Assembly (NCBI GenBank): GCA_965220715.1
Contig: CBDCQZ010000002.1
Span: forward strand, 9,332-73,331
Source: Caldilineaceae bacterium
GTDB taxonomy: Bacteria; Chloroflexota; Anaerolineae; Caldilineales; Caldilineaceae
Direction: 5' to 3'
DNA: 64,000 nt
Shown: positions 16,536 through 51,016 of the stretch, one piece after another
How positions within the stretch are numbered: position 1 is the first letter of the stretch
Layout: every line of letters begins with the position of its first letter
Position numbers and translations under genes: made by a program
The notes under the pieces: generated by a model
Databases searched by the model: none
Told to the model about the DNA's origin: nothing
What the model saw: the letters and a program-made list of their open reading frames with translations, nothing else

Positions 16536-16967
16536 ATGATGATGACAGTTCACCGCGCCCAGCTTGTACTGTTGCGCTGGCTGGTCCTGCTTTCCCCCTT
16601 CTTGTTGACCGGAGCCTGTGTGGCACAGGATTTGGTTGTCAGCCCGCTGGGGACAGTGGTGGTCGGTCCTGGGGAGGAGATTCAGATCCGTTCGGTTGAG
16701 GTTCTCACGGGCATCGGCGAACTGGGGATTCCCAGGCAACGGGCGGTGGCGATGGCACTGGCCGATTACGGCCCGATCAAGGGGCATACCGTCAGCATGG
16801 GGGCCGGCCTCGACTCGCTCTGCACTGCGGAAGGCGGTCTGGGAGCGGCGGAGATGGTCGTTGACGACGCGCGCGTTGTGGGGGTCATCGACCGCACCCC
16901 CGAGCCGCCCCACCACGGCCTGGGATCGGGGTACTATGTCAACGTTCTGGCCCGTCGAGTTCAATGA
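16536..16967 (+). pseudogene. 5-prime fragment of a periplasmic solute-binding protein gene (LivK/branched-chain amino-acid type)
   Basis: Signal peptide (LVLLRWLVLLSPFLLTGACVAQ). Conserved N-terminal lobe pattern (IQIRSVEVLTG..., ALADYGPIKGHTV, DSLCTAEGGLGAAEMVVDDARVVGVI). Homology stops near 16920, where the convergent SbcC-like gene ends. Confidence 0.55.
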
Positions 16968-19719: not shown

Positions 19720-20828
19720 CAGATAACCTCCAGATCGGTGCGACCTTCCAATGCCCGCAGACCGGTGACCACCACCCGCTGCTTCTCTTCCTCGGCAAGG
19801 TTGGAGTCGAACACATCACGGACGAACTGACCCCGGACCGTAGGCTCCTGGCTGATCGACGCCAAGTTGTAGGTCGGGCGAAGGTCGCCAAACACGATCT
19901 TCATGGCCTCGAAATTGCTCAGTCTGTCGCGCAGGTCGCTTTCGTGGATGTCGATGGTCGAGGCGATCTCGCCCCTCACAGTCAGGCGGACGAATCCTGA
20001 GAGGGATGAAGCCTTCGCCTCAAGCCGGTCGAGAATCTGCTGTTGGGTCGTCAACCCCGTGACATCAAGTTCCAGGTCGTGCGCTTCGGTCACCGCGACC
20101 CGATGGCGCGCGCGCGCGACGCGTCCATCCGGGCTGATGGTCGCAACGACGGCGCCGCGTTCGCCATTCTCGTCGAAGGCCAGCGGGTCGGGATTACCAG
20201 GATAGGTGTGAGACTTCGCATCCTTGGGACGGTGATAGTGACCGAGAAAGGCGTGGGCGATCCCTGCCTCCTCGATTTCACTGGCGTCAAATGCAGCGTG
20301 CGCTTGCTTCCCGGTGTCTTGCTCACCGAACCACGAACGCTCCGCGCCGTGGAACAAGGCGATGTGGATGCCTGACCGTTCCACGGGGAATCCGTTGAGA
20401 AAACCGTCAGTATTGGCTGGTCCCAAGTGGGCTGCCCCCCATAGCCACAGGCCGTTATTCAACTCAACCCGGCGGAGGACCGCTTCCCGGAAGACATGGA
20501 CGTTCTCACTCCAAGCTACCTGTGCGTACAGGCTTTGCGGCCCGTACCAATCATGATTCCCCGGCGCGATGTAGATGGGAAGCGGGGCGAGCCCGGCAAA
20601 CGTGTCCCTTAGAAATTCTGCGGTGTCAAGTCTGAAGTAATCATGCTCGTAGAGGTCGCCACCACAGAAGAGCGCATCGGCGTTCACCTTGCGTGTCAGA
20701 TCGACGATGCGCACTAGGGTGTCGCGAAGCGCCTGTCGACGTTGCCTGGCTGCCTCTCCTGTTGCGCCGGCCCAAGCGAATGGGGAGTCCAGATGAAGAT
20801 CAGAGAAATGAACTATTTTCATGAGCAA
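19719..20828 (-). CDS. SbcD/Mre11-like metallophosphoesterase nuclease
   Basis: MKIVHFSDLHLD, GGDLYEH, APGNHD and GHYH motifs. The stop overlaps the SbcC-like ATG by 1 nt (TGATG). Confidence 0.85.
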   Translation of the reverse strand: MLMKIVHFSDLHLDSPFAWAGATGEAARQRRQALRDTLVRIVDLTRKVNADALFCGGDLYEHDYFRLDTAEFLRDTFAGLAPLPIYIAPGNHDWYGPQSLYAQVAWSENVHVFREAVLRRVELNNGLWLWGAAHLGPANTDGFLNGFPVERSGIHIALFHGAERSWFGEQDTGKQAHAAFDASEIEEAGIAHAFLGHYHRPKDAKSHTYPGNPDPLAFDENGERGAVVATISPDGRVARARHRVAVTEAHDLELDVTGLTTQQQILDRLEAKASSLSGFVRLTVRGEIASTIDIHESDLRDRLSNFEAMKIVFGDLRPTYNLASISQEPTVRGQFVRDVFDSNLAEEEKQRVVVTGLRALEGRTDLEVI

Positions 20829-21346: not shown

Positions 21347-23317
21347 CTAGGGCTGGCTCTTAAGGGCAAAAATACTCTCGACGATGCGCTCCAGTGACCT
21401 GCTGGTCTTGCCGCTCAGCGCAGCCTTGTCGATTACGTATTCAAGAATCGCTGGATTCTTGAGTGCATGTTTCTTCTTGCCTATGCCGAATTCTTGCTGA
21501 GCTTCCGACAACCACTGGGTGAAGGATTCCTTGCCTATTTCATCCTCCAAAGTCTTTTCTAAATTGACTTTGAAGCAAGCGGATGAGTCGGCAACAAAGT
21601 GAGGCCAGTCCTGCTCGGGCTTGCATAGAAGCCGGAGCAGGTACCTGTTATCTTCGGGTTTTGCATTATTTTCGCCACAGTCTCCGTCCCATACTACATA
21701 CACCGATATGCCCAATTGCCTAAGAATGACAAGGGGACGATCTATGCTGGATTTTCCGGAGCAGGGTATGACAGCAATCCCCAGACTATCAAGATCGCAC
21801 TTCTTTAATCTTGCGAAACCCAGGATTGCCGCACGGTCATCTTCACCTTCAACCAATACGACCACATCAGCAAAAAATCCTTCTCCCATCCAAGGGGTCA
21901 TCATGGATTGGAGACGAGGTTTGAGCGTCTCTGCTGTGAACCTCTCGCCCTGTCTATCGCTCGCATGCCACAGTTCACTAGCCACAGCTCCCATATCGGC
22001 TCTTTTGAGATGAGTAGTCCTGGGTCTACCATCTTTCCGGGACACCTTGCGTAGGACCCGAATTTGGTCGAAACGATCTAGACCAACGAATAACGGAGAA
22101 TGCGTAGCGTAGATGACTTGTGTGTTTTCGACCACGCCGGGAATTGCACCCGCCGCAAGGTTTAGCAGGACTGAAGCCAAGTGGCGTTGACGACTAGGGT
22201 GCTGATATAGTTCTGGTTCCTCAATTGCCAGAATTAGGTTCGGAAGCTGGAAATTGATAGCTCCTGCGTCTGATTCAGCTCCTTCTGAGGCTCCATCCTC
22301 TGGCACCGGCTCCACGTATCTGACCGCATCAAGATGCTGTAGCATTGTAATGATGAATGCGCGTTGGAGACCATGCCCGGTCCTTTCTACTCTCGATTCG
22401 TAATCATCTTCCATAAGCTTGACTTCCGCTTGTGGCATAGGAATTGAAATGTCCGGCAGTTCAGACCATTGCAAGAGAACCTTGGCATCCGGGACATATG
22501 ATTGAAGTGTCCGAGATAAGTCATGCGATAGGTTGTCTAGTTCAGAGAGATTCATGGGGTTCATGATTGCCCTATATTGGTCTTGTGTACGCTGTCTGAA
22601 ATCTTCAACATTTTTTCGCTTCGCGAGGGCACTTCTCACTACTAGATCCATTAACTCTGTGACTGATGAACCTCTTCTCTCAGTTGCATCTTCCAGTGCA
22701 TCTCTCACAGCTGGGACGTGAATGAACTTAGTGTATCGCCCAAGATAACCTTGACCTACCTGCGTGAATCCAAAGAATTGGCCTTCATCCCTTAGTGGTT
22801 TGCAATGTTCTGGGTTCTGCGTTTCCCAGATAACTAACTCTCTTCGCACGGCATCCGCCGAATTGACGGAAGGCAATGATGCGTACTTTTCCTTCTTCCT
22901 AATTTCGTCATATTTTTTTCTGATAGCCATGGCGGCGGGGCCAGCGTTCCTAATGATAACGAAATCCGGATTCTGAAGGCGCATTCCGTGGTAGCTGCTT
23001 GACCTTCCCGACTGGGGATCAGAAAAAATCCGAACAACTGTTAGCCTGTCATTGTCGATGTAGGCTGAGAAAAAGTCTTTTGCCTCTGCATTGAGGTCGG
23101 TGTAGGTGACCGCGATCTCGATATCCTGAGTCACGTCTTCAGCATAGAAGTCCTCTGGAGTCACTCTGGCCGTTGGGTTGTAAAACAGTTCTAATGCGCT
23201 CAAGAACGAAGATTTCCCTGAACCATTGCGGCCCACTAATGCTGTGAGAGAATCGCATGGCAGTGATTCATTCAAGATAGAGCGGAAGTTTTTCACTTGG
23301 ACGTTCTGAATCAGCAT
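21347..23317 (-). CDS. OLD-family nuclease (N-terminal ABC-like ATPase plus C-terminal TOPRIM)
   Basis: MLIQNVQVKNFRSI...LVGRNGSGKSS Walker A. ILAIEEPELYQHP Walker B. ATHSP. TOPRIM signature DVVVLVEGEDDRAAI ... VVWDGD. Visibly AT-richer than the flanks. Confidence 0.85.
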   Translation of the reverse strand: MLIQNVQVKNFRSILNESLPCDSLTALVGRNGSGKSSFLSALELFYNPTARVTPEDFYAEDVTQDIEIAVTYTDLNAEAKDFFSAYIDNDRLTVVRIFSDPQSGRSSSYHGMRLQNPDFVIIRNAGPAAMAIRKKYDEIRKKEKYASLPSVNSADAVRRELVIWETQNPEHCKPLRDEGQFFGFTQVGQGYLGRYTKFIHVPAVRDALEDATERRGSSVTELMDLVVRSALAKRKNVEDFRQRTQDQYRAIMNPMNLSELDNLSHDLSRTLQSYVPDAKVLLQWSELPDISIPMPQAEVKLMEDDYESRVERTGHGLQRAFIITMLQHLDAVRYVEPVPEDGASEGAESDAGAINFQLPNLILAIEEPELYQHPSRQRHLASVLLNLAAGAIPGVVENTQVIYATHSPLFVGLDRFDQIRVLRKVSRKDGRPRTTHLKRADMGAVASELWHASDRQGERFTAETLKPRLQSMMTPWMGEGFFADVVVLVEGEDDRAAILGFARLKKCDLDSLGIAVIPCSGKSSIDRPLVILRQLGISVYVVWDGDCGENNAKPEDNRYLLRLLCKPEQDWPHFVADSSACFKVNLEKTLEDEIGKESFTQWLSEAQQEFGIGKKKHALKNPAILEYVIDKAALSGKTSRSLERIVESIFALKSQP

Positions 23318-23410: not shown

Positions 23411-24253
23411 TCACAATCGCCCCATGGAACGGAGAAGCTCCTGCGCGTAACCGACCACGTCCGCCTGTACGTTCTCGTCAAGCTCTTGAGTTATGAACCG
23501 TGCCGTCCCTATCGGTCCAAGCCCATCGTGATGGCAGAAGTCTCTCTCAATCACGGACAGTGCGTCGTCGATGCAGGTGTCAGGCTGGAGAGGAACCAGG
23601 CTCTCTGCAACACCGGGGACGCCAAGCCCGCTCCATACGTAGAAGAGGTCGTAGGCGTCCTTGTTTTCTGCCCTGTTCCCAAAGGCAAGCGCCTTGAGCA
23701 CGGTAAAGGCGCCTGGGCCGCATACCGGAATATCCCGGGTAGCCCATGCACCGGAAGGAATGCGGCCGGACAGCTCTTTCCAGCGTCGGTCTTTGAATGC
23801 CAGTTCGAGACCTGGCGTGATTATCGCGGCCAGATCAGATTCGAAATGTCGAAGTTCACCCCCCTTATCCCTCTCCGCGATGGGAGGAATCAGAAAGTCT
23901 ACGGTTACAAGATGGGGCGCGCCTGCAGTCCAGGTCTGCAATCTCCTGTTGCCCTGGTCATTGACTTCCGGCTCGAAGCCCGCGTCCCGTAACCTGCGCC
24001 CCAGCTCTCGATAGCGCTCGCAGTTCAGAATGGCCAGCGCCAGGCCCATGTCCAGGTCCATCGTGCCCGCGTGAGGTCCCAAGCCCGGCGGCAAATTTTC
24101 CTGGTCAACAAGGAGATATGGAACCAGTCCGCCAACCACAACGATTTCATCAAGCAGATCGCCCAGCCTGGTCGCCATGTAGAGACATGTCCGGTGGACA
24201 AAGCCCAACTGCTCGATGCCGTACCCGTCTCTTGTCGATGGCTTAGCGATCAT
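23411..24253 (-). CDS. nucleotidyltransferase, AbiEii/AbiGii-toxin-like
   Basis: VVGGLVPYLL...GTMDLDMGLAL (NTase-like G..D.D) and KDAYDLFYV motifs. The preferred ATG at 24253 overlaps the upstream gene by 11 nt. Confidence 0.5.
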   Translation of the reverse strand: MIAKPSTRDGYGIEQLGFVHRTCLYMATRLGDLLDEIVVVGGLVPYLLVDQENLPPGLGPHAGTMDLDMGLALAILNCERYRELGRRLRDAGFEPEVNDQGNRRLQTWTAGAPHLVTVDFLIPPIAERDKGGELRHFESDLAAIITPGLELAFKDRRWKELSGRIPSGAWATRDIPVCGPGAFTVLKALAFGNRAENKDAYDLFYVWSGLGVPGVAESLVPLQPDTCIDDALSVIERDFCHHDGLGPIGTARFITQELDENVQADVVGYAQELLRSMGRL

Positions 24254-25454
24254 CGTTGCCCCGCAAGAGGAGCCGCCTCCGCAGCGCATCGGCGGCTTCC
24301 GCCGCCCTTTCGGGATGGTCCTTCAGGTCGACATAGGCCTGCACAGGATGGACGCAGCGAATCCCGTCGACAAGTACAACGCCGTCGAATACGCCCTCGT
24401 CGTTGGGCACAACCAGCCACGTGTTGGCTCCCCTGGCTTCTTCACGGAAACCGAGTTCCTTCTTCAACCCAGCCGACGGCGAGCTTGAGAGGTACACAGT
24501 CGCAAGGCGGAATCCCGCGTAGCGTGTCCACAGCCACGCCGCGGGGAGCGCAGTCGCTGCGTAGGGCTCCGCAATCCTCGACAAGATTTCGGATATGGCC
24601 TGAATCAGCAGATCGCCTCCCCGGGACGCAATGTGGCCTCGAATAACGTGATGCCGGTCAAACCTGTACTCATCCCGCCAAGCAGCGAGCAGCACGCTCG
24701 TGTCAGTGACACTGATGCCGTCCTCTCCTCGATTGACAAGGCCGGCCTCCAGGAGCTTGCCGACGATGCGGCTCGTATGTCCCTCATCCAGACCGGTGCA
24801 GGAGGCCAGGCTGCGCTGCCTTACCGGTTTGGTGGGTTCCATAAGCAGCCGTCGCGTTATCCGCGCGCCCTTTGGTCCGAATGCGCTCTCCGGTCGTCCT
24901 ACGCGGCGGAAGCGGTTGGGATTGCCCAGGTTCTGATAGAATATACCGGGCGCATTGATGCGCGCGTTTCCTGAGAGATCCAGCCAAGGCAGTTTGGCCC
25001 GCGCGCACAATTTCTGCGCCGCTTCTCCCATGTAAGGGACTGCCAGCAGCGGAATTACTTCATGAGGGAAGCTATGCTTGGCCATCTCCAGTTGGCGGAT
25101 CGCGGCAGCGACATGGCCAGGGGATCCTGAACGCTTCCATTCCAATACAAAGGAAAGATCTCTGGCAGCGAAGAGCGCGTCCCATTGCCGGCCGTCACTG
25201 CTGCGTACAGCAATGTGAGTATCCTCAGCGAACTCGAGATCACCAAGAATCTCGGCGAGACGATCTGCCGCCTGCCGGATAGCGATGGCTTCGCGTGGAA
25301 TTTGCATACTTGCTTTTATACCATTACTTGCGGAAATGCGCAAGTAATGGTGTTTACGCAAATCTTGGCCGTTGTAGACATCTGCCCGGGAAAGCGGTAA
25401 GTTGCCTGGCGTAGAGGTATGGCGGCCAGTGTTATGCCATTGGCTGTTGCTCAT
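24243..25454 (-). CDS. AbiEi-like wHTH antitoxin/regulator with an extra N-terminal domain
   Basis: Central wHTH (RQRSLASCTGLDEGHTSRIVGKLLEAGLV). C-terminal VDGIRCVHPVQAYVDLKDHPERAAEAADAL resembles AbiEi C-termini. The N-terminal roughly 190 aa (DALFAARDLSFVLEWKRSG...) is unassigned. Confidence 0.5.
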   Translation of the reverse strand: MSNSQWHNTGRHTSTPGNLPLSRADVYNGQDLRKHHYLRISASNGIKASMQIPREAIAIRQAADRLAEILGDLEFAEDTHIAVRSSDGRQWDALFAARDLSFVLEWKRSGSPGHVAAAIRQLEMAKHSFPHEVIPLLAVPYMGEAAQKLCARAKLPWLDLSGNARINAPGIFYQNLGNPNRFRRVGRPESAFGPKGARITRRLLMEPTKPVRQRSLASCTGLDEGHTSRIVGKLLEAGLVNRGEDGISVTDTSVLLAAWRDEYRFDRHHVIRGHIASRGGDLLIQAISEILSRIAEPYAATALPAAWLWTRYAGFRLATVYLSSSPSAGLKKELGFREEARGANTWLVVPNDEGVFDGVVLVDGIRCVHPVQAYVDLKDHPERAAEAADALRRRLLLRGNDDR

Positions 25455-25707: not shown

Positions 25708-26109
25708 TTAGGAACGGGGTGGAGCGATGATTTCACAAATGGGGCCGCTGGCGCGGCTGAGCTTGCGGTCGAGCGTCACCAGTGGACAATCCAGAGCCTC
25801 TGCCAGCGCAACGTACCATGCGTCGTAGCTGGTCAGGTTGCCGCGCAACGCCCATATCCGCTCAGCGAAAGGCGCGAAGGGAAACAACTCTATGTCCAGC
25901 CGCAGCAGGTCTCGATGAGCGCTGGTGGCTTCTATACGCGATATCTTCTCACCCAGCTCCAGCCGGCGCAGGATGTTGCTGGCCTCGACGAGAACCAACT
26001 CCGGCCCGGCCAGGTCGCCTTCGGCAAATGTAGCTTCCGCCCACTTGCCCTCGTCGCCCGAATCGACCAGTATCGCGACCAACACGGATGCGTCAACGAC
26101 TGTCGTCAC
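25708..26109 (-). CDS. vapC: PIN-domain toxin VapC
   Basis: MTTVVDASVLVAIL... acidic PIN residues. 133 aa. 4-nt overlap with the upstream antitoxin. Confidence 0.85.
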   Translation of the reverse strand: MTTVVDASVLVAILVDSGDEGKWAEATFAEGDLAGPELVLVEASNILRRLELGEKISRIEATSAHRDLLRLDIELFPFAPFAERIWALRGNLTSYDAWYVALAEALDCPLVTLDRKLSRASGPICEIIAPPRS

Positions 26110-26342
26110 GTTCGATCCGCGTCACGGGCGCGCAGGATATGGTCCGGTTCTACCCGTGTTTCCGCCACTGCCTTCCGCTCGCGAATGCTTTGCAGCCATG
26201 CGGCTATGGAGGGACGCGACGCGATACGCTCCAACTCGCAACGCAAGAACTCTTGCATCGACTGGCGTTGGCGCGCGGCGCGCACGGCGAGCTCATCACG
26301 CACTTCTTCAGGAACATCCCTTATCGTAATCTGTACAGGCAT
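26106..26342 (-). CDS. vapB: VapB/FitA-type ribbon-helix-helix antitoxin
   Basis: MPVQITIRDVPEEVRDELAVRAARQRQSMQEFL, the typical RHH antitoxin N-terminus. Coupled to vapC. Confidence 0.8.
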   Translation of the reverse strand: MPVQITIRDVPEEVRDELAVRAARQRQSMQEFLRCELERIASRPSIAAWLQSIRERKAVAETRVEPDHILRARDADRT

Positions 26343-26543: not shown

Positions 26544-26690
26544 TCACGCGAGCCATTTCGCCGCGCGCCCCGCCTTCTCCGCCCGCGTGTAGACTTCGAC
26601 CATGCGTGCCGTCTTCCAGTGCCCCTGCGCCATGATTCCATGCGCTGGCGCACCGGCCACCTTGATGCGGTAGGAGAGCGCCACGATCGA
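26544..26690 (-). pseudogene. 3-prime remnant of a tyrosine recombinase gene (last roughly 40 codons including the catalytic Tyr)
   Basis: The reverse strand translates to ...KVAGAPAHGIMAQGHWKTARMVEVYTRAEKAGRAAKWLA*. The intact integrase at 32364 reads AAGAPTHEIMAQGRWKTARMVEVYTRAEEAGRAAKWLA*. There is no upstream catalytic domain. Confidence 0.85.
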
Positions 26691-26964
26691 CAACTCAAAC
26701 AGTAGTAGAATCGGGAAGACGTGCGTCCTGATCGCCTTGCCTTTGCTGGGTGAAGGGGTTGCCCGGCTCCGACAGGAGCGACCCGCTCAACCGGTTTCCA
26801 TCACAGTTCAGCCAGCGATAGAGAGGAGCTCGGACGGCTCCCGCCCCTCAATCGATGCCTTATCCCGTTTCATTTTGCCCCCATTTCTGCTCTCAATTCC
26901 TCACTAAAATCTGCACCCTGGCTCTTTCCCAAAAATCTGGGATGGATCTGGTATACTCGTTCGC

Positions 26965-26993
26965 TTGACAAATTTAGCATTGCGAAATATACT
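26965..26993 (+). promoter_or_regulatory. sigma70-type promoter TTGACA-17 nt-TATACT driving the pAgo operon (apparently leaderless)
   Basis: -35 at 26965-26970 and -10 at 26988-26993. The ATG of the first gene is 7 nt after the -10 and no RBS is present. Confidence 0.6.
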
Positions 26994-27000
26994 TAGCAAT

Positions 27001-27360
27001 ATGGCGCGGAACACAGAAAAGTTGGGAGCCTTTCTCGCATCGGCGCGAAGTAAGTTGGACATGTCGCTCCGAGCAGTAGAGAAAGAGACTGGAATATCCA
27101 ACGCCTATCTTAGCCAGTTGGAACACGGCAAGATCAAGACGCCGGCGCCGCAAAACCTGTACAAGCTCGCCCAACTCTATCGAGTGCCCTACAAGTTGTT
27201 GATGGAACTTACCGGATATCCGGTGCCAGAAGCCCCATCCGCTGAGTCTCGGGCCGCCCATGATGCCTTTGCGGCTCGCATTGGCGCGGTCACGGAGGAG
27301 GAAGAAGAGGCGCTCGTCGAATACCTGCAATTCATCCGGTCGCGAAGAAGGAGACGCTAA
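27001..27360 (+). CDS. XRE-family HTH transcriptional regulator
   Basis: LRAVEKETGISNAYLSQLEHGKIKTP is a classic Cro/C1 HTH. The stop overlaps the next ATG (TAATG). Confidence 0.85.
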   Translation: MARNTEKLGAFLASARSKLDMSLRAVEKETGISNAYLSQLEHGKIKTPAPQNLYKLAQLYRVPYKLLMELTGYPVPEAPSAESRAAHDAFAARIGAVTEEEEEALVEYLQFIRSRRRRR

Positions 27361-28301
27361 TGCGGTGGTCCTATTCGGCGAGCCGCTCATTTCGCCAGTG
27401 CCAGAGGCAATGGTTTTTCAAGAATGTCGTGGCAAATGCAAGAGCCAAAGACCCATTCCGAAAGCGAGCCTATCTGCTCAGTAAGCTCCAAAGCATAAGC
27501 GCGTGGCGAGGCAGTATCGTCGATAACGTGATCTCGAACACGATCATTCCCAATATCAATCGCCGCTCCCCAATCACGCTGAACGACGCCAAGACGTACG
27601 CCCGCAGCCTGTTCGACCGGCAACTGGCCTATGCCCGGCGGCATCCGCTCGGGGATTTGGCTCTAAAAGTGTCCCAAGAAGGAGACGATTTTGCGGTCTT
27701 GTACCCTATGGAATATGGAGGAGAATTGCCGGAGCATGAAATCGAACGGGCGTGGGGTGAGGTCGAGACCGCTCTGGAAAACCTGTTCAGGATGGAAGAT
27801 ATCAAACAGATCCTCAAGTCGTCCGATTACGTCGTTGCACAACGCGCGCTCCAGTACAAGCTTATGGATGGTGTGACAGTGCTCGCCTATCCTGACGCAA
27901 TTGCGTTCCGTCGCAGTGCTCCACCCGTAATCATCGACTGGAAGGTTCACGCCTTCGGCACGAACGACGCCTGGCTGCAACTGGCGATCTACGCCATCGC
28001 GCTGAGCCGCTGCAATCCGCATAGTGACTTTCCAACTGGCTTTGGAATGCAGCCTCAAGCATCAACGCTCTATGAAGTCCAACTCCTGACGAACGTCGTG
28101 CGTGAACACTCGCTTGACGAGGAACAGATCGTAGAGGCCGAGGAATATATGTGTAGCTCTGCTTACGAGATAACCTGTCTGACCGAAGGTAGGAAATACT
28201 CTGAACTGAGCGTCGAAGATTTCAGGCTCGCTACGTATGAACAGACCTGCCAACGCTGTGCATTCCGGGCCATCTTCTGGGAGGAGCCCCATGTCGATTG
28301 A
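27360..28301 (+). CDS. PD-(D/E)xK nuclease, Cas4/RecB-like
   Basis: N-terminal SASRSFRQCQRQWFF. Core YPDAIAF...PVIIDWKV (D...DxK). QLAIYAIAL (QxxxY). C-terminal CQRC cysteines. Confidence 0.7.
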   Translation: MRWSYSASRSFRQCQRQWFFKNVVANARAKDPFRKRAYLLSKLQSISAWRGSIVDNVISNTIIPNINRRSPITLNDAKTYARSLFDRQLAYARRHPLGDLALKVSQEGDDFAVLYPMEYGGELPEHEIERAWGEVETALENLFRMEDIKQILKSSDYVVAQRALQYKLMDGVTVLAYPDAIAFRRSAPPVIIDWKVHAFGTNDAWLQLAIYAIALSRCNPHSDFPTGFGMQPQASTLYEVQLLTNVVREHSLDEEQIVEAEEYMCSSAYEITCLTEGRKYSELSVEDFRLATYEQTCQRCAFRAIFWEEPHVD

Positions 28302-30642
28302 AACGAATTGCTTCCGCATTGAAGGCTTGGAGGCGTTAAGCACAACCTATCGTCTATACCGGATCGCCGGTCTTCACCGGGATGGTCAAGAGTACTATGG
28401 CAATGTGCAACGGCTCGTTCGGAAGTTGAGCTATGATCTGAAAGCGCCGGTGACGACCTGCAACATAGAGGACGAGAACTTCCTGGCAGTTCCAACCAAG
28501 TATGGGCACCCTCCGGCGCAAATTCCTCTTGTCCATGCTGTTGCCCTGTTGAAGGACACTGGAAACGAAATCGAGCTCGACTTCACTTCGAACAGACCCG
28601 AGCTTGATACTCTTCGAATTCGGTATCTCCAGTTCGCTTTTCAGAATCCACTCTGGAACAAACCACAATTATGGCAGCCGAGTGCGGGGAAACCGTACTT
28701 CTTCAAAAATCCTCAGCGCCAATTCGGTGAAATCGATCTCTTTGAAGGCTTCACCTTTCGCATTGCGCCACATCCGGAAGGTGGGTTCGGACTCATTGTC
28801 GATCTGCGTCGAAAGCTTGTCTCAAAACGACCTTTGCCGTCATCTCCTCTGCGCGAACATATCAACAAGCTCAAAGGTCGCTCATGTGTTTACAAAATGG
28901 GCCACAATTGGTTCGAGGTAACCCTTGATGGACTCGCCGACGTGAAGGCAGGAGAGCCTTTCATTCCTCTTGGCGGCGAGGCGGTCAGTCTGATCGACTA
29001 CCTGACAAAAAGATCTCGGAAACCTGTCCCGTCCTCAATAGCGAACCTTGCGTCGGACGGCGCTGCAATTTACTACCGTACCAACGGTCCAGGGAAAAAG
29101 TCGGCGCCCACGGCGCTCTGCTATCTGGTCCAGGACACGCATAGCCGAGAGGGCGCGAGGCATCATCATGAGACGCCCATGAAACCACAGGATCGGTACA
29201 GGCAGATCAACCGGCTTGTCACAAAGTTTTTGAAGAAGGTGCCGGTCGGGAACATCACTCTTTCGGTTTCGGAACGGCCAGGGTGTGTGAGAGCGAAACC
29301 GTTCATGCCGCCCAGCTTGCGCTTCGGCAACGGTGCAGTTTTGTCGATCGATGGGGACAATCAAGATGACTGCGCGGCGATCAAGGACTATGGGCAATGC
29401 AGGCTGACGCTCCTGAAAGACAATAAGGCAGGCTTCTATGAACAGAGTCGCCTGAATCGACAATATCTCGTACTACCCAAAAGTGTTCGGAACAGCTTCG
29501 GCGCGCAGTTTCTCAAAGATCTCACGAGGGAGGTAGATAAACTTTACCCCGCAGGTGGCGGATACGATCCCGAAATTGTCATTTATGACGACCCTGATGG
29601 TCGCCGGGGCTTTGCCGGACAGTCACGTGCGATTAAGAAGGCCGTGGAGAACCACCGAGTCAAGCCGGGAGACGCGCTCGTTATGGTACACCGCTACGAA
29701 CGCCGCCCGCGCTCAGCCGATCAACTGGCCGCCTGGACGGTAAAGGAATTCCCCTCCCTGTTCGGTCTCAATGGGGCCGTGATTCACACGGACATGGCAA
29801 AAAAGGCATATGCCGCTAAGAAGTATGGGAACGAAACGCGTTACGTCGTTAGGAGCGCGGAACGTGGTCGTCTCTCCGGTTACTTGCGCAATGTCGCGCT
29901 CAATAAGATATTACTCGCCAATGGGAAGTGGCCATTTGTCCTTGATACGCTTTTGCATGCCGATCTGGTAATCGGAATTGACGTAAAGAATAACACCGCC
30001 GCCTTCACCCTCATTGCTGACAGAGGACAGATCATCAGGTTTTCCATGAGTCCGTCGCGGCAAAAGGAGCAGTTGCTTAAAGCACAGGTCAAGAAAGTCG
30101 TGTACGAAATCATTCGCAAGGATGCCCCCTATTTCAAACAACGCCCAGCAAAGATCGTCATCCATCGTGACGGACGCGCCTGGCCGGCGGAAGTCGAAGG
30201 ACTAAGGGCAGCGTGCGAACAACTTGCCGAAGAGGGCCATTTCGATACGGACTGGCGCCTGACGGTTGTCGAGATCAGAAAGTCTGCGCCGGCGCCGCTG
30301 CGGATGTTCAATGTCAAGCGGCGGAAGGACAGTCAGGTGCTCGATGTAGAGAACCCCACGGTCGGTACCTGGCTACAAACTGCTCCGGACGAGGGCTATG
30401 TCTGCACGACCGGGCAACCATTCTCGATTCCAGGCACATCCAACCCGCTCCACATCCGGCGGGCAGAAGGCGATATGTCCATCGAACACTGTCTGTCGGA
30501 TCTCTTTTCACTAAGCTGTCTCACATGGACCCGGCCGGAGGGTGCGACGCGCCTGCCGCTTTCGCTCAAGCTCTGTGATCGCAGCCTATTCGACGAGGCC
30601 GCAGAATATGATCAGGATGCCATTGAATTCGAGGACAGCTGA
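28291..30642 (+). CDS. long prokaryotic Argonaute (pAgo) with candidate DEDD catalytic tetrad
   Basis: PIWI hallmarks LVIGIDV, KEQL, IVIHRDGR and LKLCDRS. MID-like RYERR..TVKEF..NVALNKILLANGKWPF. 783 aa from the ATG at 28291, which overlaps the nuclease gene by 11 nt. Confidence 0.85.
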   Translation: MSIETNCFRIEGLEALSTTYRLYRIAGLHRDGQEYYGNVQRLVRKLSYDLKAPVTTCNIEDENFLAVPTKYGHPPAQIPLVHAVALLKDTGNEIELDFTSNRPELDTLRIRYLQFAFQNPLWNKPQLWQPSAGKPYFFKNPQRQFGEIDLFEGFTFRIAPHPEGGFGLIVDLRRKLVSKRPLPSSPLREHINKLKGRSCVYKMGHNWFEVTLDGLADVKAGEPFIPLGGEAVSLIDYLTKRSRKPVPSSIANLASDGAAIYYRTNGPGKKSAPTALCYLVQDTHSREGARHHHETPMKPQDRYRQINRLVTKFLKKVPVGNITLSVSERPGCVRAKPFMPPSLRFGNGAVLSIDGDNQDDCAAIKDYGQCRLTLLKDNKAGFYEQSRLNRQYLVLPKSVRNSFGAQFLKDLTREVDKLYPAGGGYDPEIVIYDDPDGRRGFAGQSRAIKKAVENHRVKPGDALVMVHRYERRPRSADQLAAWTVKEFPSLFGLNGAVIHTDMAKKAYAAKKYGNETRYVVRSAERGRLSGYLRNVALNKILLANGKWPFVLDTLLHADLVIGIDVKNNTAAFTLIADRGQIIRFSMSPSRQKEQLLKAQVKKVVYEIIRKDAPYFKQRPAKIVIHRDGRAWPAEVEGLRAACEQLAEEGHFDTDWRLTVVEIRKSAPAPLRMFNVKRRKDSQVLDVENPTVGTWLQTAPDEGYVCTTGQPFSIPGTSNPLHIRRAEGDMSIEHCLSDLFSLSCLTWTRPEGATRLPLSLKLCDRSLFDEAAEYDQDAIEFEDS

Positions 30643-30662
30643 TTTCAAAAGGAGGAGGAAAC

Positions 30663-31028
30663 ATGAGTGATCTGAGTCTGCTGACCGGCGTTTACGCTGA
30701 TGTCGAAGCATACGGTGTGCTGATAGACAAAGTGATTGAACGCCTGGGACGGGGGCAGGCTGACCCGACTGATCCGGACCAGAAGAAGCTGGCGCAACTC
30801 TTCGTTGATGCCGGCGATCAAGGTCTGGCATCGCAGTCCCTTGAAGCTTTGACATTGGACAGCCTGCTCAGGACAAGAACCGCCGAACCTATGGCAAACT
30901 TGAAACTGCTTGGTGAACGACTTCAGGACGGCGACGTCGATCAAGCATATCTGAGTCAACTCGAGGAACTCGCCAGGAAATTGGAACAGAAGCGGGCGGA
31001 CATTGCCCGCCGGCTACGGGGACGCTGA
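30663..31028 (+). CDS. small acidic helical protein of unknown function
   Basis: 121-aa ORF with an AGGAGG RBS. Heptad-like C-terminus (LSQLEELARKLEQKRADIARRL). The stop overlaps the next ATG (TGATG). Confidence 0.6.
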   Translation: MSDLSLLTGVYADVEAYGVLIDKVIERLGRGQADPTDPDQKKLAQLFVDAGDQGLASQSLEALTLDSLLRTRTAEPMANLKLLGERLQDGDVDQAYLSQLEELARKLEQKRADIARRLRGR

Positions 31029-32179
31029 TGGTCGAGAGATACTTGAGCGGGTCAATTGGTCAACTGCTGGAGCGGGCGCGGCAGTTGCGCCAAATCGTGC
31101 ATGGAACGTATCCGCGTGAATATGATGGCCTGCGGCAAATCTGTTTGAAACACCTTGAAGACATCCAGGCAGAGCTTCAATACTTGGCCCAAGAGACGGT
31201 TGTCGATACGACGTTGCAGACACCGTTGCGTTTGAGGCGCTTCAAACGCATCGTGGAGCATCTCAAAAGCGTCGAAGGAATTGGGGTATTCGCCCTCAGC
31301 AGAGCAAACCATGATGACAACTTTCTCAACCGTCTTATTACGGAGATCTGCCGTGAGATCGCCTTTCCTCTGATCTCTCCGACCATCAGCCACATGTCCC
31401 AGGACTATTTCCATGTATACACAGATTTCTATCTCCTCTGTGTACCCTTGATGGAGAGCAGATTCCTCCTGCATCTGCCCGATATCTATCACGAGTTGTG
31501 CCATCTTTTACACCACGGTCAGAACAACGATCTGCCAACCCTTGAAACGTACCATGCCGCCTACAAGCAAAGTCTGTTCGAGATGGTGAGACATTTCCGC
31601 GACGAAACTGTAGCCGCAGAACGTGTGCGCAAGACGGAGGGCCATCTGTACCAACTTCAACTATGGCGCACCTCTTGGGCCGAGTACTGGATGCAAGAGT
31701 TTTTCTGCGACCTGTTCGGCGTGCTGACTGCTGGGCCCGCATTTGCCTGGTCGCACTATCATCTGTGCGTCAAGCGTGAGAGCGACCCTTTTGAGACGCC
31801 CTTGGCGTTCGTGACGACGCATCCGGCCGATGATGCGCGGATGCGAGCAGCCCTCCTGATGCTAACGGCGACCGGTTTCGCTGCGGAAGTCAAACAGATC
31901 GAAAAAGCCTGGCGGGAGTATGTAGGGATCATGGGTTACTGTCCAGTACCTGAATACTGGCACTGCTACCCGGAAATTCTGCTGTCTGGAATCGTCTCAG
32001 CGGTACAAGACAGCATCGAAGGGATCGGCGTGGTGACGGCAAAGCAGGAGTCGTTGACACCGGTAGTCGGCCTTCTCAACACCGCATGGCAGGAATTCTG
32101 GCGGGCGCCGGAAGGCTATCAGGCTTGGGAGGCGGAGCAGCTCAAGGCATTGCGCGCAACTTTTGACGTGACGCTTTGA
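31028..32179 (+). CDS. HExxH...ExxxD protein (putative gluzincin-like metallopeptidase)
   Basis: HELCH at 31490-31504 and EFFCD at 31697-31711, both in frame. No other recognisable domain. Confidence 0.5.
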   Translation: MVERYLSGSIGQLLERARQLRQIVHGTYPREYDGLRQICLKHLEDIQAELQYLAQETVVDTTLQTPLRLRRFKRIVEHLKSVEGIGVFALSRANHDDNFLNRLITEICREIAFPLISPTISHMSQDYFHVYTDFYLLCVPLMESRFLLHLPDIYHELCHLLHHGQNNDLPTLETYHAAYKQSLFEMVRHFRDETVAAERVRKTEGHLYQLQLWRTSWAEYWMQEFFCDLFGVLTAGPAFAWSHYHLCVKRESDPFETPLAFVTTHPADDARMRAALLMLTATGFAAEVKQIEKAWREYVGIMGYCPVPEYWHCYPEILLSGIVSAVQDSIEGIGVVTAKQESLTPVVGLLNTAWQEFWRAPEGYQAWEAEQLKALRATFDVTL

Positions 32180-32363: not shown

Positions 32364-33338
32364 CTACGCCAGCCATTTGGCGGCACGTCCCGCCTCCTCC
32401 GCGCGCGTATAGACCTCGACCATCCTTGCCGTTTTCCAGCGTCCCTGCGCCATAATCTCATGCGTGGGCGCACCGGCCGCGGCCATGCGCCGCGCCATGC
32501 CGACGCGGCCCGAATGGCCGGAAAAACCCGCCCCCAGGCCGGCCGTCGCGGCCGCGGCGCGGATGCGGCGCGCGATCGAGGGGGCTGAGAGCCCGAACAG
32601 CGCCGCCGCGCCGTCCGCGTCTACCGGCCGCATCGCCGCCAAAGCCGCGACCGCGGCCGGCGTCAGGTAGACGGTGCGTTCCTCGGCATCGGTCTTCGAG
32701 CGGCCCACGGTCAGCCGGCCCGAGCCGTCCTCCCAGCGCGCCACGTCGTCCCAGACCAGCGCGGCCGCCTCGGAGCGGCGCAGGCCGGCGTCCGACAGCA
32801 CGCGGCACAGCGCGATGTCGACCCGCCCGCGGCGCCGCGCCTGTTCAGCCAATTCCAGACGGCCGCCGCGGCCGACGCGCGGCTGGCAGGCGGAGGCGCT
32901 GATCATTGCCAGCGCCTCCGCGGTGAGCGCGTACGCCTGGCGCGGGGGCGGGGCCTGGCGCGCCAGCCCGCTGATCGTATCGGTCACAACCTGGTCGTGC
33001 GCGCTCGGCTCGACGCCGACGAGCGCTTGCAGCTTGCGCAGCGCGGCCACGGTCAGCCGCAGCGAGGAGAGGCCGACGCCGGCCGCGGCCCGCTCCTGCA
33101 GGTAGGCGCGCAGCGCGAACGGCGGCGCGGCCAGCGCATGCACGCCCTGCAACGCGGCCCAGCGGCCCCAGGCCGCCAGCGCGCCGCCGTAGGCGCGGCG
33201 CGTGTTGGGCGCGAGCGCTTCCAAAGCGGCCTCGAAGCGGGTCGAATGTTCGGCGTCGAAGGCTCTGACGAGGCCGGGCGCGGCCTCTTGGACGTTGACC
33301 AGGACGCTTGCGGACGCGCTGGCGGGCGCGGCGCTCAT
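32364..33338 (-). CDS. tyrosine recombinase (same family as 486-1484)
   Basis: GRSKTDAEERTVYL, GHSGRVGMARRMAAAG, RWKTARMVEVYTRAEE. Confidence 0.9.
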   Translation of the reverse strand: MSAAPASASASVLVNVQEAAPGLVRAFDAEHSTRFEAALEALAPNTRRAYGGALAAWGRWAALQGVHALAAPPFALRAYLQERAAAGVGLSSLRLTVAALRKLQALVGVEPSAHDQVVTDTISGLARQAPPPRQAYALTAEALAMISASACQPRVGRGGRLELAEQARRRGRVDIALCRVLSDAGLRRSEAAALVWDDVARWEDGSGRLTVGRSKTDAEERTVYLTPAAVAALAAMRPVDADGAAALFGLSAPSIARRIRAAAATAGLGAGFSGHSGRVGMARRMAAAGAPTHEIMAQGRWKTARMVEVYTRAEEAGRAAKWLA

Positions 33339-33647: not shown

Positions 33648-34088
33648 ATGATCCCGGAATTCGAGCCCGACGGCAACCTGCCCCCAGGTGTCCACTGGGC
33701 CACTTGGCGTGAACTCCATGACCGATTTGGGACAACACGCTGGCGGCGCCGGTTGCTCGTTGGCCTGCGAGCTGCTTTGGAGAACCTGCGGAGCGCCGGT
33801 TGTCTTACAGCTTACGTGGACGGCAGCTTCGTCTCCTCCAAGTCGGAACCCGGCGACTTCGACGCCTGCTGGGAGGAAGCGGGCGTGGATCTCGACAGGC
33901 TTGATCCCGTACTGCTGACATTCGATGACGGCCGCGCGGCGCAGAAGGCCAAGTACGGTGGCGAGTTCTTTCCGGCATCCGCGGTCGCCGGTTTGGGAGA
34001 AGGTGTCTTCTTGGACTTCTTTCAGACCGATAAGGATACGGGTGACCGGAAAGGCATCGTCGCCTTAGATCCAGGAGGTCTGATATGA
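33648..34088 (+). CDS. minimal nucleotidyltransferase-fold protein (DUF6932-like)
   Basis: MIPEFEPDGNLPPGVHWATWRELHDRFG...RRRLL.GL..AL..L..AGC..AYVDGSFVS.K.EPGDFD.CW fits my memory of that family. Confidence 0.5.
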   Translation: MIPEFEPDGNLPPGVHWATWRELHDRFGTTRWRRRLLVGLRAALENLRSAGCLTAYVDGSFVSSKSEPGDFDACWEEAGVDLDRLDPVLLTFDDGRAAQKAKYGGEFFPASAVAGLGEGVFLDFFQTDKDTGDRKGIVALDPGGLI

Positions 34089-34561
34089 TCAAGAATGAAA
34101 GGCAATATCGAATCACTAAGGCCCAGGCAGACCGCTTTTCTGAGGCGCTGCGTAGACTTGATGCCGGTGGGGCAGATCAATCCGAATCCCATCCGCGTTT
34201 GCTCGCCGTGCAGAAAGAGGCGCTGCAGAGCCAACTTTCCGACCTTGAGGCGGGTATTCAGGAGTATGAAACTCTCAAGGCCGGAAACTTTGCGTTTGAG
34301 CAACTGGAGCGTATTTCGGAACTCCCCAGGCTTTTGATCCGGGCGCGCATCGCGAGCGGCCTCAGTCAACGGGGCCTGGCTGACCGCCTCGGCTTGAAGG
34401 AGCAGCAGATCCAGCGCTATGAGGCGAGCGACTACGCTTCTGCGAGTTTTGCCAGAATCAGAGAGGTGGTGTCCGCTTTAGACATAGAGGGAGACGATAC
34501 CGATACCCGACTTGCCTATGAGGGAACTGAGCCTGGCCCTCAAAACTGGACCACGAGCTAA
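34085..34561 (+). CDS. HTH (XRE-type) protein with an N-terminal helical extension, antitoxin-like
   Basis: MIKNERQYRITKAQ... then GLSQRGLADRLGLKEQQIQRYEASDY. 4-nt overlap with the upstream gene. The last five codons and the stop are supplied by the IS3 end. Confidence 0.6.
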   Translation: MIKNERQYRITKAQADRFSEALRRLDAGGADQSESHPRLLAVQKEALQSQLSDLEAGIQEYETLKAGNFAFEQLERISELPRLLIRARIASGLSQRGLADRLGLKEQQIQRYEASDYASASFARIREVVSALDIEGDDTDTRLAYEGTEPGPQNWTTS

Positions 34562-34754: not shown

Positions 34755-37700
34755 ATGCCGTTACCGGGCGGAGCAGCTGAGAAGTTTGGCAACCGATACG
34801 AAGGACGTTGGACTGTGGCGTGCCTGCTGGATGTCATGGCCGAAAAGGCTGACTCGATACGGCTGGAACCGCCCGAACCCGAAGGACAAGGGTTTGAGTT
34901 CTGGACCACGAAACAGGGTATCCAGGAATATCACCAAGTAAAGCGACAACATTCCATCGGGCATTGGACACTCAACGCTCTGAAAAGAGAGGGAGTTCTG
35001 ACCAACTTCACCGCAAAACTCCAAGAAGACCCAATGGTGCGTTGCGTATTCGTCTCTGCCATCTCGGCAGGCCAGTTAGCCGAACTATCTGATAGAGCCA
35101 GAAGGTCGGCTAACTGGGAGGAATTCAACGCAGCATTCATTAACACCGACCAAATGAGGACGAACTTCGATCTTGTTCGTGATTCCCACCCAAGTTTGCC
35201 AAAGCAGGAGACATACGAACAATTAAAGCGCGTCCACATCAGAACGATCGACGAGCCCTACCTCCTCACTATGATCGAAAGCCGCGCATCAACCCTGGTC
35301 GAAGGAGATGACGCAACCGTTGTAGACGTTCTGGCTGCGATGGCTTCAGATGGAGTCCACTATGAACTCACAACTCATGATATCTGGAACCATTTGAAGT
35401 CCAGAGGATTTCGTCGCCGCCACTGGGACAAAGACCCTCATGTCCTGAAGGCCGTTGATGAGGCCAACCAGCGCTACGTTAACTTTCTACGCTATCAAGC
35501 CATCGGCCATACTGTCCTCCCACGCCAAGAGGTTCAAACAGTTCATGATCGCCTGAAAGAATCCAGCGGGAAAACCGGCGTTCTGGTAACCGGAGAGGCG
35601 GGCATCGGCAAGAGTGTGGTGATGCTCCAGGTGGTTGAGGAACTCCTCGACGCTGGCACTCCAGTCGTGGCGTTGCGCGCCGACCGATTGGAGTTTACCC
35701 TGTTGCCAAATGACGTTGGCGAGCAGATTGGACTACCCGGCTCTCCAGCCAACGTCCTTGCCAACGTAGCTCAGGGCAGGCACTGTGTCCTTGTCATAGA
35801 CCAACTGGATGCTTTAAGCATTGCCTCGGGCCGGAATACCGAACTTTTCGACTGCGTCTATGAAATCATCCAGCAAGCGCAAGCCCATCCCAATATGCGT
35901 ATCCTGCTGGCTTGCCGCAAGTTCGATCTTGACAACGACCACCGCCTGCGCCGCCTTACGGACTCAGATGGAGTCGCCGAGCCCGTGGCTGTTGAGCGGC
36001 TGGCGCATGAAACCGTACGTGAAGTTGTCGCAAGGTTCGGCTTGGATGCAAACTCGCTTAATTCCAGCCAACTGGACCTGTTGTCGATCCCATTGCATCT
36101 GAAACTGCTGACGGAGTTGGTGGCAGATGCAGAAATCCGTGCCCTGAACTTCGAGACGTCCCAGGATCTTTACGCGCGGTTTTGGCAGTACAACCAAAGA
36201 GTCATCGAAGAGCGGCTTGGGCGGCCGGTGCAATGGACCCGGGTGGTATATGCCCTGTGCGACCATATGCACGCGCGGCAGACTTTGAGCACTCCGGAAG
36301 TCTTCGTGGAGGACTGGAATAGCGACGCCGAGGCGATGGTGTCGGAAAATGTTCTCGTCCTTGAAAACAAGCGGTACTCCTTCTTCCATGAAGGATTTTT
36401 CGATTACGCATTTGCCCGGCGTTTTGCAGGAGGTTCCCAGAGCCTGTTGGGCCTATTGGAAAGCGGTGAACAACATCTGTTCCGGCGCGCGCAGGTGCGG
36501 CAGATATTGCTTTACCTGCGCGATGCAGATTTCAATCGGTACATCGCCGACCTCGAAGAATCCCTCTCCAGTCCTGACGTTCGCTTTCACATCAAGCAGG
36601 TGGTTTTTGCCCTCTTGGCCGATCTGTCGGGACCTGTAAAGGAAGAGTGGGACGTCTTATCCAGTTTTGCTGGGAAAGACTTCAGCGACTCCTTAACACG
36701 CCTTACCTGGATGACAGTGCGCCGTCCTCCCTGGTTCCGGTTGGTGCACTCCCAAGGATTCGTGCAGCAGTGGCTGGATGACCCGGATGAGGCCTTCGTC
36801 GACCAGACTGTTTCGCTCTTGAGGGTAATCCAGAGGGAATTGCCTGACAGGGTGGCGGAACTTGCAGAACCGTACGTCGGTAAGTCAGAACGCTGGAACA
36901 ACCATCTACTCCACTTGGCAGTGTGGGGAGATTGGAGTCAAGAGCGGCGCTTCCTCGAGTTGGTGTTCCAACTGATAGACAAAGGTGTCCTCGACGACAT
37001 AGCAGACAACCGTGACTTATGGAGCAATTTGTATAGCTTGCAATCCACCCACCCTGTGTGGGGCTGTGAGGTAGCCGGACATTACTTCGATCGCCGGCGT
37101 CACCTGAGCCTCAACGCAGGGCAGCCCAACCCCTTTGACGACAACGACGGCGCCATCGCAAACAGCCAATTTGCTGAAAACACGCTGAAAGAACTTGCCA
37201 GCAATGCCCCAGAGTCTTTCGTTCGAGAGGTTATGCCGTTCATGCGAGCAGTCATAGAGGACTGTGCTTCGCAAGAGCGTGGCGGACTCCTCCAAGACCC
37301 AATCTGGTCCTTCAGGATCTTCCAGAGTGGCTACAGTATCCAAGACGCTCTGCTAAATGCTATGGAAGTTGCCTTGTCCAAGCTGGCTATACTGCATACG
37401 GCGATATACCGCTCAGTGATAGAGCCCCTTCGCGAGTCTCCGTTCGAGACAATCCAATACCTGCTGATCCGCAGCCTCGCTTCTAACGGACCGCTATTCG
37501 CGGACGAGGGAGTAGACCATCTCTGCAAAAGACCGGAGCGACTAAAGATAGGTTACACGTCGAACTTATATTGGGCGTCGAGGCAATTGATCGAATCCAT
37601 ATCGCCCCATTGCTCTGACGAAAAACTCAAACAACTGGAGACATTGCTGCTTGGATATTACCCGGACTGGGAAAAGAGTGTCTTGGGTAGAAATCAACAC

Positions 37701-39257: not shown

Positions 39258-39480
39258 GGACTGAGCAACAAAAAAGGCCCGCGCATATGGCCTTACAGGG
39301 GGAGGACACCGTATCTCAGGTGCGCTTCCCGAACGGAAGTGTTAGAGACCGGAGGAGCCTGTACGGGGAGACTGTAGATGCCTCTATTCAATAGGGGGCC
39401 AAAGATCGAACTGAGAGACATTTCAGGACCTTGGTTCAAAATCCAGGAAGATGCCCCCTCACGAGTTGAGGTGTAAGAAC

Positions 39481-50942: not shown

Positions 50943-51016
50943 AGTCCTCTTGTCCTTGTTGTGCTGAATGGCATTCTCGCCTGCCGTTTTCCAGGATATG
51001 GTTCCAGCATCGACTC

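Follow-up and report, generated by a model that had tools for sequence, protein, structure and literature searches.

Positions 26965-32179 of a 64,000-nucleotide stretch of a Caldilineaceae bacterium genome (GenBank assembly GCA_965220715.1, contig CBDCQZ010000002.1, positions 9,332 to 73,331; this whole stretch is called the window, and its own numbering is used below) hold a five-gene prokaryotic Argonaute (pAgo) operon that we can assign with near certainty to the PliAgo type. It is an ordinary, intact member of the PliAgo-group cassette, and its last two genes, P4 and P5, are core components of such cassettes both in the branch regulated by a helix-turn-helix (HTH) protein and in the branch regulated by a sigma factor. 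Our overall account, to which we give somewhat better than even credence, is a PliAgo-group cassette seated in a defence island, with P4-P5 belonging to its core and P5 likely a zinc hydrolase working with the pAgo. The elements of the operon are listed here (aa, amino acids).

26962..27000, + strand, operator-like repeats, cGCTTGACAAATTTAGCA overlapping the -35 box and ...ATATACTTAGCA overlapping the -10 box and transcription start
26965..26993, + strand, sigma-70-type promoter TTGACA-17-TATACT, 11 of 12 matches, the best in the region
27001..27360, + strand, P1, XRE-family HTH regulator, 119 aa (131 aa from the mechanical start TTG 26965)
27360..28301, + strand, P2, pAgo-associated Cas4-like PD-(D/E)XK nuclease
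28291..30642, + strand, P3, long pAgo of the PliAgo group, 783 aa
30651..30658, + strand, Shine-Dalgarno sequence GGAGGAGG, read from the sequence within the P3-P4 gap
30663..31028, + strand, P4, 121 aa, helical bundle, unannotated family
31028..32179, + strand, P5, 383 aa, all-helical model, unannotated family, HExxH motif

An earlier note on this DNA, made from its letters alone, had described five co-directional genes behind a single promoter, and the list of open reading frames (ORFs) of this region bears that out for the + strand; the stop/start junctions and ribosome-binding-site gap that it reported were re-read on the sequence and are all as claimed. P1 and P2 meet at TAATG (27358-27362), the pAgo ATG at 28291 starts 11 nt ahead of the P2 stop with GGAGGAG upstream, a 20-nt gap separates P3 from the P4 ATG at 30663, and P4 and P5 overlap at TGATG (31026-31030). 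Two alternative starts were rejected: TTG 26965 for the first ORF, which belongs to the -35 hexamer, and position 28237 in the ORF list, giving an 801-aa pAgo, where PliAgo residue 1 and the public gene call (783 aa) both agree with 28291. The true start of P1 is almost certainly the ATG at 27001, which related loci conserve. Rfam and tRNA scans of the region returned nothing, and no second copy of the operon occurs within the 64-kb window.

The Argonaute itself identifies the group. P3 aligns with PliAgo chain 7R8F_A (N-L1-PAZ-L2-MID-PIWI) over its full length at E=5.9e-213, residues 1-782 onto chain residues 1-781 (phmmer, PDB), matches the PADLOC model pAgo_II with 1035 bits over positions 1-775 of 782, and scores 713 bits to PliAgo versus 228 bits to MbpAgo. 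The four codons that the earlier note had picked out as a catalytic tetrad (29980, 30067, 30169 and 30577) do encode D564 (GIDVK), E593 (KEQL), D627 (HRDG) and D763 (LCDRS), which align with PliAgo D563, E592, D626 and D762. Residues specific to PliAgo are also present, namely K566, K760, R468 and Y531 (PliAgo K565, K759, R467 and Y530); in PliAgo, K565 adjoins the first tetrad Asp, and R467 and Y530 belong to the MID pocket (PMC9360449). PliAgo is a DNA-guided RNA-cleaving pAgo from Pseudooceanicola lipolyticus, in a group that includes RslAgo of Runella (Lisitskaya et al. 2022, PMC9360449; PDB 7R8F-7R8K), and P3 would by its close full-length homology, the one ground for this expectation, be a DNA-guided RNA cleaver as well. 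Operons of the PliAgo group are described as having 'the same gene composition', comprising a putative HTH regulator and, ahead of the pAgo, a PD-(D/E)XK nuclease that is a distant relative of Cas4, and in the sister PnyAgo group a sigma-70-family factor takes the place of the HTH regulator (PMC9360449).

P2 fits this description. It matches the PADLOC model Aga_Cas4-like_Nuc (E=2.4e-127, positions 1-306 of 308) and Pfam PDDEXK_1 (1.6e-10), and both the catalytic D...(D/E)xK and the QxxxY motif are present (D179, D193-W-K195, Q207...Y211) at conservation of at least 95% in 38 homologues. The iron-sulfur cluster of Cas4 and AddB is held by four cysteines, one N-terminal and the others in CxxCx5C; among the cysteines of P2 only C14, C297 and C300 are conserved, with no conserved fourth Cys after C300.

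P1 gave Pfam matches to HTH_19 (1.5e-12) and HTH_3 (2e-10), and PADLOC matches to HTH_VI and, over nearly its whole length, to capH (2.4e-8). A GYPVP linker is conserved between the HTH and a conserved C-terminal helix, and the protein finishes with the basic stretch SRRRRR. When eight related loci are compared, their upstream DNA cannot be aligned up to the -35 box, where conservation starts abruptly: no variation is seen in TTGACA, in the two TTTAGCA repeats or in the ATG at 27001, and the -10 box is conserved. Some ~37 far more divergent loci share this layout, so that promoter and operator are kept across ~45 loci, unlike the DNA upstream of the promoter. Equivalent sites in other lineages are clear palindromes, for example TGCTTGAcataTCAAGCA, with the -35 box embedded in an inverted repeat; in divergent loci the -10 box is overlapped by another, related site, in most cases with the ATG right behind. 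These repeats are probable candidate binding sites for the P1 repressor, and P1 is by the same pattern a probable autorepressor of its own operon. The P1 ATG stands directly after the -10 box without a Shine-Dalgarno sequence, an arrangement conserved in most related loci, although a few lineages have a short Shine-Dalgarno (GGAGG) leader inserted before P1; the mRNA from which P1 is translated thus appears to be leaderless or nearly so.

The first three genes are therefore already described and catalogued, and for them the claim of the earlier note fails: a slicer-competent pAgo with a Cas4-type nuclease and its own HTH regulator is not a new configuration, that operon being published (PMC9360449) and matched by PADLOC models. 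Its domain calls (XRE HTH, Cas4-like nuclease, long pAgo with intact DEDD tetrad, small helical protein, HExxH protein) were correct, and the synteny of the partners around the closest pAgo homologues, a check it had named beforehand, was found. As to whether the gene set matches a named system, it does for three of the five genes (P1-P3) and does not for P4 and P5, on which the rest of the argument turns.

P4 and P5 are linked to the pAgo far beyond this locus. A metagenome search anchored on P5 recovered 80 loci with P5 36-65% identical to that of the window; of the 60 loci with at least 1 kb of upstream sequence, 59 have the pAgo directly upstream, and of the 37 with at least 4.3 kb, 35 show the full set of HTH, nuclease and pAgo. 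The five-gene order was found at 64-81% identity in metagenome-assembled genomes of Latescibacterota, Nitrospirales and Entotheonella (L001-L007), and five-gene synteny also in Bradyrhizobium genomes (L008-L010) and a metagenome contig (L011). Flanking genes are unrelated from one locus to another, so the conserved unit runs from the promoter to the P5 stop. The pattern is the same at about 25% P5 identity (L093, L094), and it extends to other pAgos and regulators: L095 has a P4-slot gene and P5 after a pAgo nearer MbpAgo (9WMD) than PliAgo, L097 has P4-P5 in an operon that opens with a sigma70_r4-like gene and also holds a nuclease and pAgo_II, and in L048 and L055 no HTH is detectable and P4-P5 are still present. 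In related loci the P4 slot is filled by a 112-124-aa ORF wherever one could be extracted, and by one of 137-150 aa in the most divergent. A single locus, L099 (GCA_040961635.1, 3400-9131), has a P4-like gene (147 aa) and P5 (376 aa) with no pAgo or nuclease within 8 kb; the pair sits downstream of a 68-aa HTH protein, a 755-aa AAA ATPase and a 157-aa protein (L100 was noted alongside), and may represent a different sensor using the same P4-P5 module. The 755-aa ATPase of this locus has a weak RTasDnaG-like match in PADLOC.

We found no description of P4 or P5 in the literature searched on pAgos, including papers citing PliAgo. The accessible text of PMC9360449 does not mention them; its Fig. 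1b, in whose legend nuclease, regulator and sigma factor 'are indicated', may draw them unlabelled.

P5 has 664 homologues and 924 cluster representatives at 50% identity, and all of its named database homologues are 'hypothetical'. Twelve columns are invariant across 47 sequences reaching down to 23% identity, and they include H155, E156, H159, E224, D228, H265, P266 and R271. The resulting pattern is HExxH (155-159), ExxxD 65 residues on (E-F-F-C-D-L-F-G) and then HxxxxxR, and the putative metal-site residues are retained in every variant examined. In a fairly confident AlphaFold 2 (AF2) model the protein is all-helical (predicted local distance difference test, pLDDT, 81), with HExxH and ExxxD each within a helix. 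Read as a gluzincin-like site, H155, H159 and E224 would be the metal ligands and E156 the general base, with D228, H265 and R271 in support. Searches of Pfam, NCBIfam, PADLOC (including capP) and PHROG gave no match to P5, and profile searches against PDB sequences returned coiled-coil noise only. A Pfam scan of 47 diverse P5 proteins produced weak matches to M78 (two proteins, best E=0.011), M48 (one) and M50 (one), which are scattered among equally weak matches to unrelated families and are suggestive of a peptidase without amounting to membership. With no fold, sequence or family match, P5 is a predicted metallohydrolase of an undescribed family, one that could not be placed in any known peptidase family. 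That it is a metal-dependent hydrolase we consider likely; the conserved residues make it most likely a zinc-dependent one, and probably a peptidase.

Two P5 cluster representatives, P0245 and P0273, have a CHAT domain at the C-terminus, its caspase-like His/Cys dyad intact (HFSGHG...LNACYS), and keep all putative metal-site residues. P0245 lies in an otherwise standard operon (L011, 8001-9830). Pfam finds no CHAT domain in P5 of the window.

P4 had no match in Pfam, NCBIfam, PADLOC or PHROG, and its homologues (192-228) are all labelled 'hypothetical'. Its AF2 model is a confident bundle of five helices (pLDDT 91.3), for which Foldseek found nothing in PDB at E<0.2, the 'hits' being generic four-helix bundles. 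Both ends of the protein are conserved, the N-terminus as MSDxxLxxGxY...LxD and the C-terminus as LExLAxxLExER...R(L/M)RG(R), and distant P4-slot proteins keep these terminal motifs as N-terminal MS[DES]xG...Y and a basic C-terminal tail. P4 proteins end in the basic tail R-(L/M)-R-G plus 0-4 residues after the LExLAxxLExER helix, and P5 might dock on this tail or cleave it. In L048 (93-1622) and L055 (2708-4252) a 509-514-aa ORF lies on the same strand directly upstream of the Cas4-like gene and has a JAB/MPN-like HTHP...SPRD motif and a ThiF/E1-like GxGGxG region. That JAB/E1-like gene suggested reading the R-x-R-G end of P4 as a ubiquitin-like tail, an idea we rejected because P4 is helical, not beta-grasp.

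From these observations we propose the following course of events. P1 would repress the operon through the two operator repeats over the -35 and -10 boxes; P2 would supply or process single-stranded DNA guides from invading DNA, as in the proposal, itself speculative, of the PliAgo authors that the nuclease makes guides (PMC9360449); and P3 would slice complementary transcripts of the invader. P4 would be the translationally coupled partner of P5, as its substrate, inhibitor or adaptor, and P4-P5 together would form a proteolytic output or control module with the pAgo, not an HTH-repressor switch. The P5-CHAT fusions, the persistence of P4-P5 without an HTH, and the L099 pair favour a separable proteolytic-output module that is normally slaved to the pAgo. 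To the proposition that P4-P5 acts with the pAgo as a proteolytic module we nonetheless give a little less than even weight, and hold it tentatively.

Several points weigh against this account. The P5 model lacks the beta-sheet typical of zincins, and its two most conserved stretches, 118-142 and 251-263, are the least confidently modelled. Foldseek searches with that model against PDB and BFVD gave no hit at E<0.2 and no metallopeptidase. When the P5 profile was aligned to the catalytic segment of neprilysin (hhalign), HExxH alone aligned, at a probability of 0.4%; because nothing beyond that motif aligns, P5 as a member of M13 was rejected and it is not filed there. PliAgo alone cleaves RNA in vitro (PMC9360449), so P4-P5 are not required for slicing. 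The role of the PliAgo clade in cells, that of its published members included, is only speculated on (PMC9360449), and the long pAgos with catalytic activity that have been characterised to date function without effector partners, as is also general knowledge (Ryazansky 2018, PMC6299218).

A more specific form of the proposal, which we regard as doubtful, would make P4-P5 a target-activated proteolytic output module, comparable to the type III-E Craspase but built on an Argonaute. Once the pAgo, guided by DNA, had recognised invader RNA, the P5 metalloprotease would become active, reinforced in some lineages by the fused CHAT caspase-like domain, and P5 would cleave P4 and/or cellular or regulatory proteins, leading to a transcriptional or abortive response. 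Such a module, if it exists, would explain how an RNA-cutting pAgo protects against DNA invaders, and P5 would define a metallopeptidase family and a fold that are both new.

A reasonable rival, though in our judgement an unlikely one, is that P5 instead works as a derepression switch, a signal-activated metallopeptidase that cleaves the P1 repressor, with P4 modulating P5. The pairing of an XRE repressor with an HExxH peptidase is a common theme, and several features of P1 and its operator speak for such a switch: the capH match (E=2.4e-8) over nearly its full length, a GYPVP linker that is a plausible cleavage site, and an operator layout implying tight autorepression that must be released. 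The Peptidase_M78 (IrrE-like) matches in 2 of the 47 P5 members (best E=0.011), weak as they are, point the same way. Yet P4-P5 are kept where the regulator is sigma70-like (L097) or where no HTH is detectable (L048, L055), P1 and P5 are the first and last genes of the operon, with P5 translationally coupled to P4, unlike the known repressor-protease pairs, whose genes are neighbours, P5 has no meaningful match to PADLOC capP or Pfam M78, and a CHAT fusion makes little sense for a dedicated repressor protease.

We also think it unlikely that P4-P5 are a non-proteolytic accessory pair aiding the pAgo or the nuclease in guide generation, loading, turnover or localisation, with an HExxH site that would bind a structural or regulatory metal or hydrolyse nucleic acid or nucleotide in place of peptide. 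Hydrolases other than peptidases, the RNase YbeY among them, do have HExxH-type sites, the predicted fold of P5 is all-helical and would suit a scaffold, neither fold nor family speaks for a peptidase, and the synteny with pAgo and nuclease is strict. Against this stand the invariant HExxH, ExxxD and His/Arg, which make up the full gluzincin complement and more than a metal-binding pair, the fusion of P5 to a protease (CHAT) and not to a nuclease or helicase, and the L099 pair, which has no pAgo or nuclease nearby.

That P4-P5 merely hitch-hike as an independent two-gene unit (a toxin-antitoxin or separate defence system), as L099 and the contrast between the overlap of P4 with P5 and the 20-nt gap before P4 might suggest, is hard to credit, given that they directly follow the pAgo in those 59 of 60 loci over pAgo identities of about 25% to 70% and two regulator types, that P4 overlaps the pAgo stop in some relatives (L008, L094), that a promoter scan of the region found no promoter-like site ahead of P4, and that L007, which keeps the pair after deletion of pAgo and nuclease, is a single decayed copy. 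Very improbable, too, is the reading of the earlier note as a whole, an undescribed five-component Argonaute system in a new configuration: P4 and P5 do fall outside every described family compared and go unmentioned in the literature searched, but P3 matches PliAgo end to end (E=6e-213), the HTH-nuclease-pAgo operon is published (PMC9360449) and in PADLOC, and the five-gene layout is the PliAgo-group norm, so that the locus is not a new arrangement.

The cassette stands out from its surroundings. Its GC fraction is 0.52-0.56 versus 0.58-0.69 in the flanks, and two integrase sequences adjoin it.

26546..26669, - strand, integrase 3'-end remnant (last ~41 codons), left repeat copy, displaced
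32364..33338, - strand, tyrosine recombinase/integrase, Pfam Phage_integrase (1.5e-12) and Phage_int_SAM_1, at the edge of the low-GC cassette

A direct repeat of 124 nt brackets the cassette (26546-26669 and 32366-32489, 81% identity, spacing 5820). It corresponds to the integrase 3' end, its homology beginning exactly at the stop codon, and tblastn of the integrase onto the left remnant gave 76% identity over residues 279-324. To judge by this geometry, the repeats look like an attL/attR pair from a site-specific insertion at the 3' end of the integrase gene. The cassette is a mobile unit of ~5.8 kb within a defence island. No recombinase gene lies within the 5.8-kb insert, and a check for co-travel of the neighbouring integrase found no homologue of it near any other cassette examined. 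A third related integrase, 42% identical, lies at 486-1484 on the - strand, with a short fragment at 8208-8264. The island comprises the following neighbours.

8278-11391, AddA-like UvrD/PDDEXK protein
11271-14402, AddB-like protein
16939-20828, SbcC/SbcD-like proteins
21347-23317, OLD-family ATPase/TOPRIM nuclease
24243-25454, 403-aa HTH protein
25708-26342, VapBC
33648-34561, DUF6932 and HTH pair
34755-39257, 1500-aa nSTAND NTPase with HEAT repeats
39451-40857, Schlafen/AlbA_2-HATPase protein
42517-46212, 1231-aa SIR2_2 protein
47631-51200, DUF499 protein

Elsewhere in the window, 2119-7488 encodes a protein of 1789 aa that combines a fibronectin type III domain with a very large number of leucine-rich repeats.

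At the related loci the genes just after P5 vary, among them SMODS/nucleotidyltransferase-like, DUF6602 and DUF123 genes (L001, 11983-12903; L003, 12299-13204; L006, 11890-12513), which fits insertion of the cassette into different defence islands. In Bradyrhizobium (L008-L010) a 1012-aa DEAD/Helicase_C protein precedes the cassette on the same strand (710-3748) and an unannotated ORF follows it (9297-11153; 618 aa in L009 and L010, 350 aa in L008); neither the helicase nor the downstream ORF is conserved at other loci, and NEL/LRR effector-like genes lie near these cassettes. Several related cassettes are decaying: an insertion of ~930 bp interrupts the pAgo in L005 (9225-10156), one of ~1.7 kb interrupts the Cas4-like gene in L006 (6230-7915), and in L007 nuclease and pAgo are almost wholly deleted (8000-8001) with HTH, P4 and P5 kept. 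In L011 the Cas4-like gene is split into ORFs of 128 and 107 aa, and an unrelated integrase lies just downstream.

We know of no class of programmable nuclease other than the PliAgo/PnyAgo clade that uses DNA guides to cut RNA, and the clade is under development as an RNA tool. The linkage of P4 and P5 to these pAgos is as tight as that of the nuclease, and P5 has a complete, invariant signature of a metallohydrolase and, in some relatives, a fused caspase-like protease; this linkage makes the cellular role of these pAgos open to specific experiments. For annotation, the defence models of PADLOC 2.0 recognise only two of the five genes of the locus.

Among known systems, the gluzincins, which include thermolysin (M4) and neprilysin (M13), share with P5 an HExxH helix, a later ExxxD helix and a downstream His/Arg pair; in kind and order these are the residues that build the zinc site and the transition-state network of gluzincins. 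Neprilysin, read on its PDB sequence, has HEITH...ENIAD...HSPGNFR in the same order, with spacings of 59/61/6 against 65/37/6 in P5. P5 has, however, no significant sequence or fold similarity to gluzincins and no predicted beta-sheet subdomain, and the resemblance, read from the sequence, is one of motifs and not of membership. In CapH/CapP of CBASS, ImmR/ImmA of ICEBs1 and DdrO/IrrE of Deinococcus, an XRE repressor is cleaved by an HExxH metallopeptidase. The operon resembles the CapH/CapP type in having an XRE repressor with a C-terminal extension over a defence or mobile-element operon, an HExxH protein in the same operon and the capH match, but P5 is no detectable M78 or CapP homologue, is all-helical and 383 aa long, lies four genes from P1, and persists under a sigma factor or without an HTH.

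With long-B and short pAgo systems the locus has in common that, within a defence island, the pAgo gene is accompanied by those of a dedicated nuclease and of other partners; the pAgos of those systems lack the catalytic tetrad and delegate killing to a partner (nuclease, SIR2, TIR or membrane protein; PMC6299218, together with general knowledge), whereas P3 keeps an intact DEDD and falls in a clade whose pAgos cut RNA themselves. The PnyAgo/MbpAgo group (MbpAgo structures 9WMD, 9WMF and 9WMH; PMC13346755) is a related DNA-guided RNA-cleaving clade with the same Cas4-like nuclease and with P4-P5 in L095 and L097, and differs in that the regulator in the window is an XRE HTH and not a sigma factor. 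From the PliAgo group the locus does not differ structurally at all, although the published text, in the part accessible to us, names only the nuclease and the regulator, without the two downstream genes.

Craspase combines gRAMP/Cas7-11 with the TPR-CHAT protease Csx29, Csx30/31 and RpoE. The effector here is an Argonaute with DNA guides and not a Cas protein, and P5 of the window would use a metallo-site in place of CHAT, which is fused only in some relatives (P0245 and P0273). At the level of gene content alone, both systems join an RNA-cleaving guided effector to a protease with a helical domain, small proteins of unknown fold and a transcription factor, the latter a sigma factor in the sister pAgo group, and some P5 proteins set an N-terminal helical part before a C-terminal CHAT domain in the same order as TPR-CHAT.

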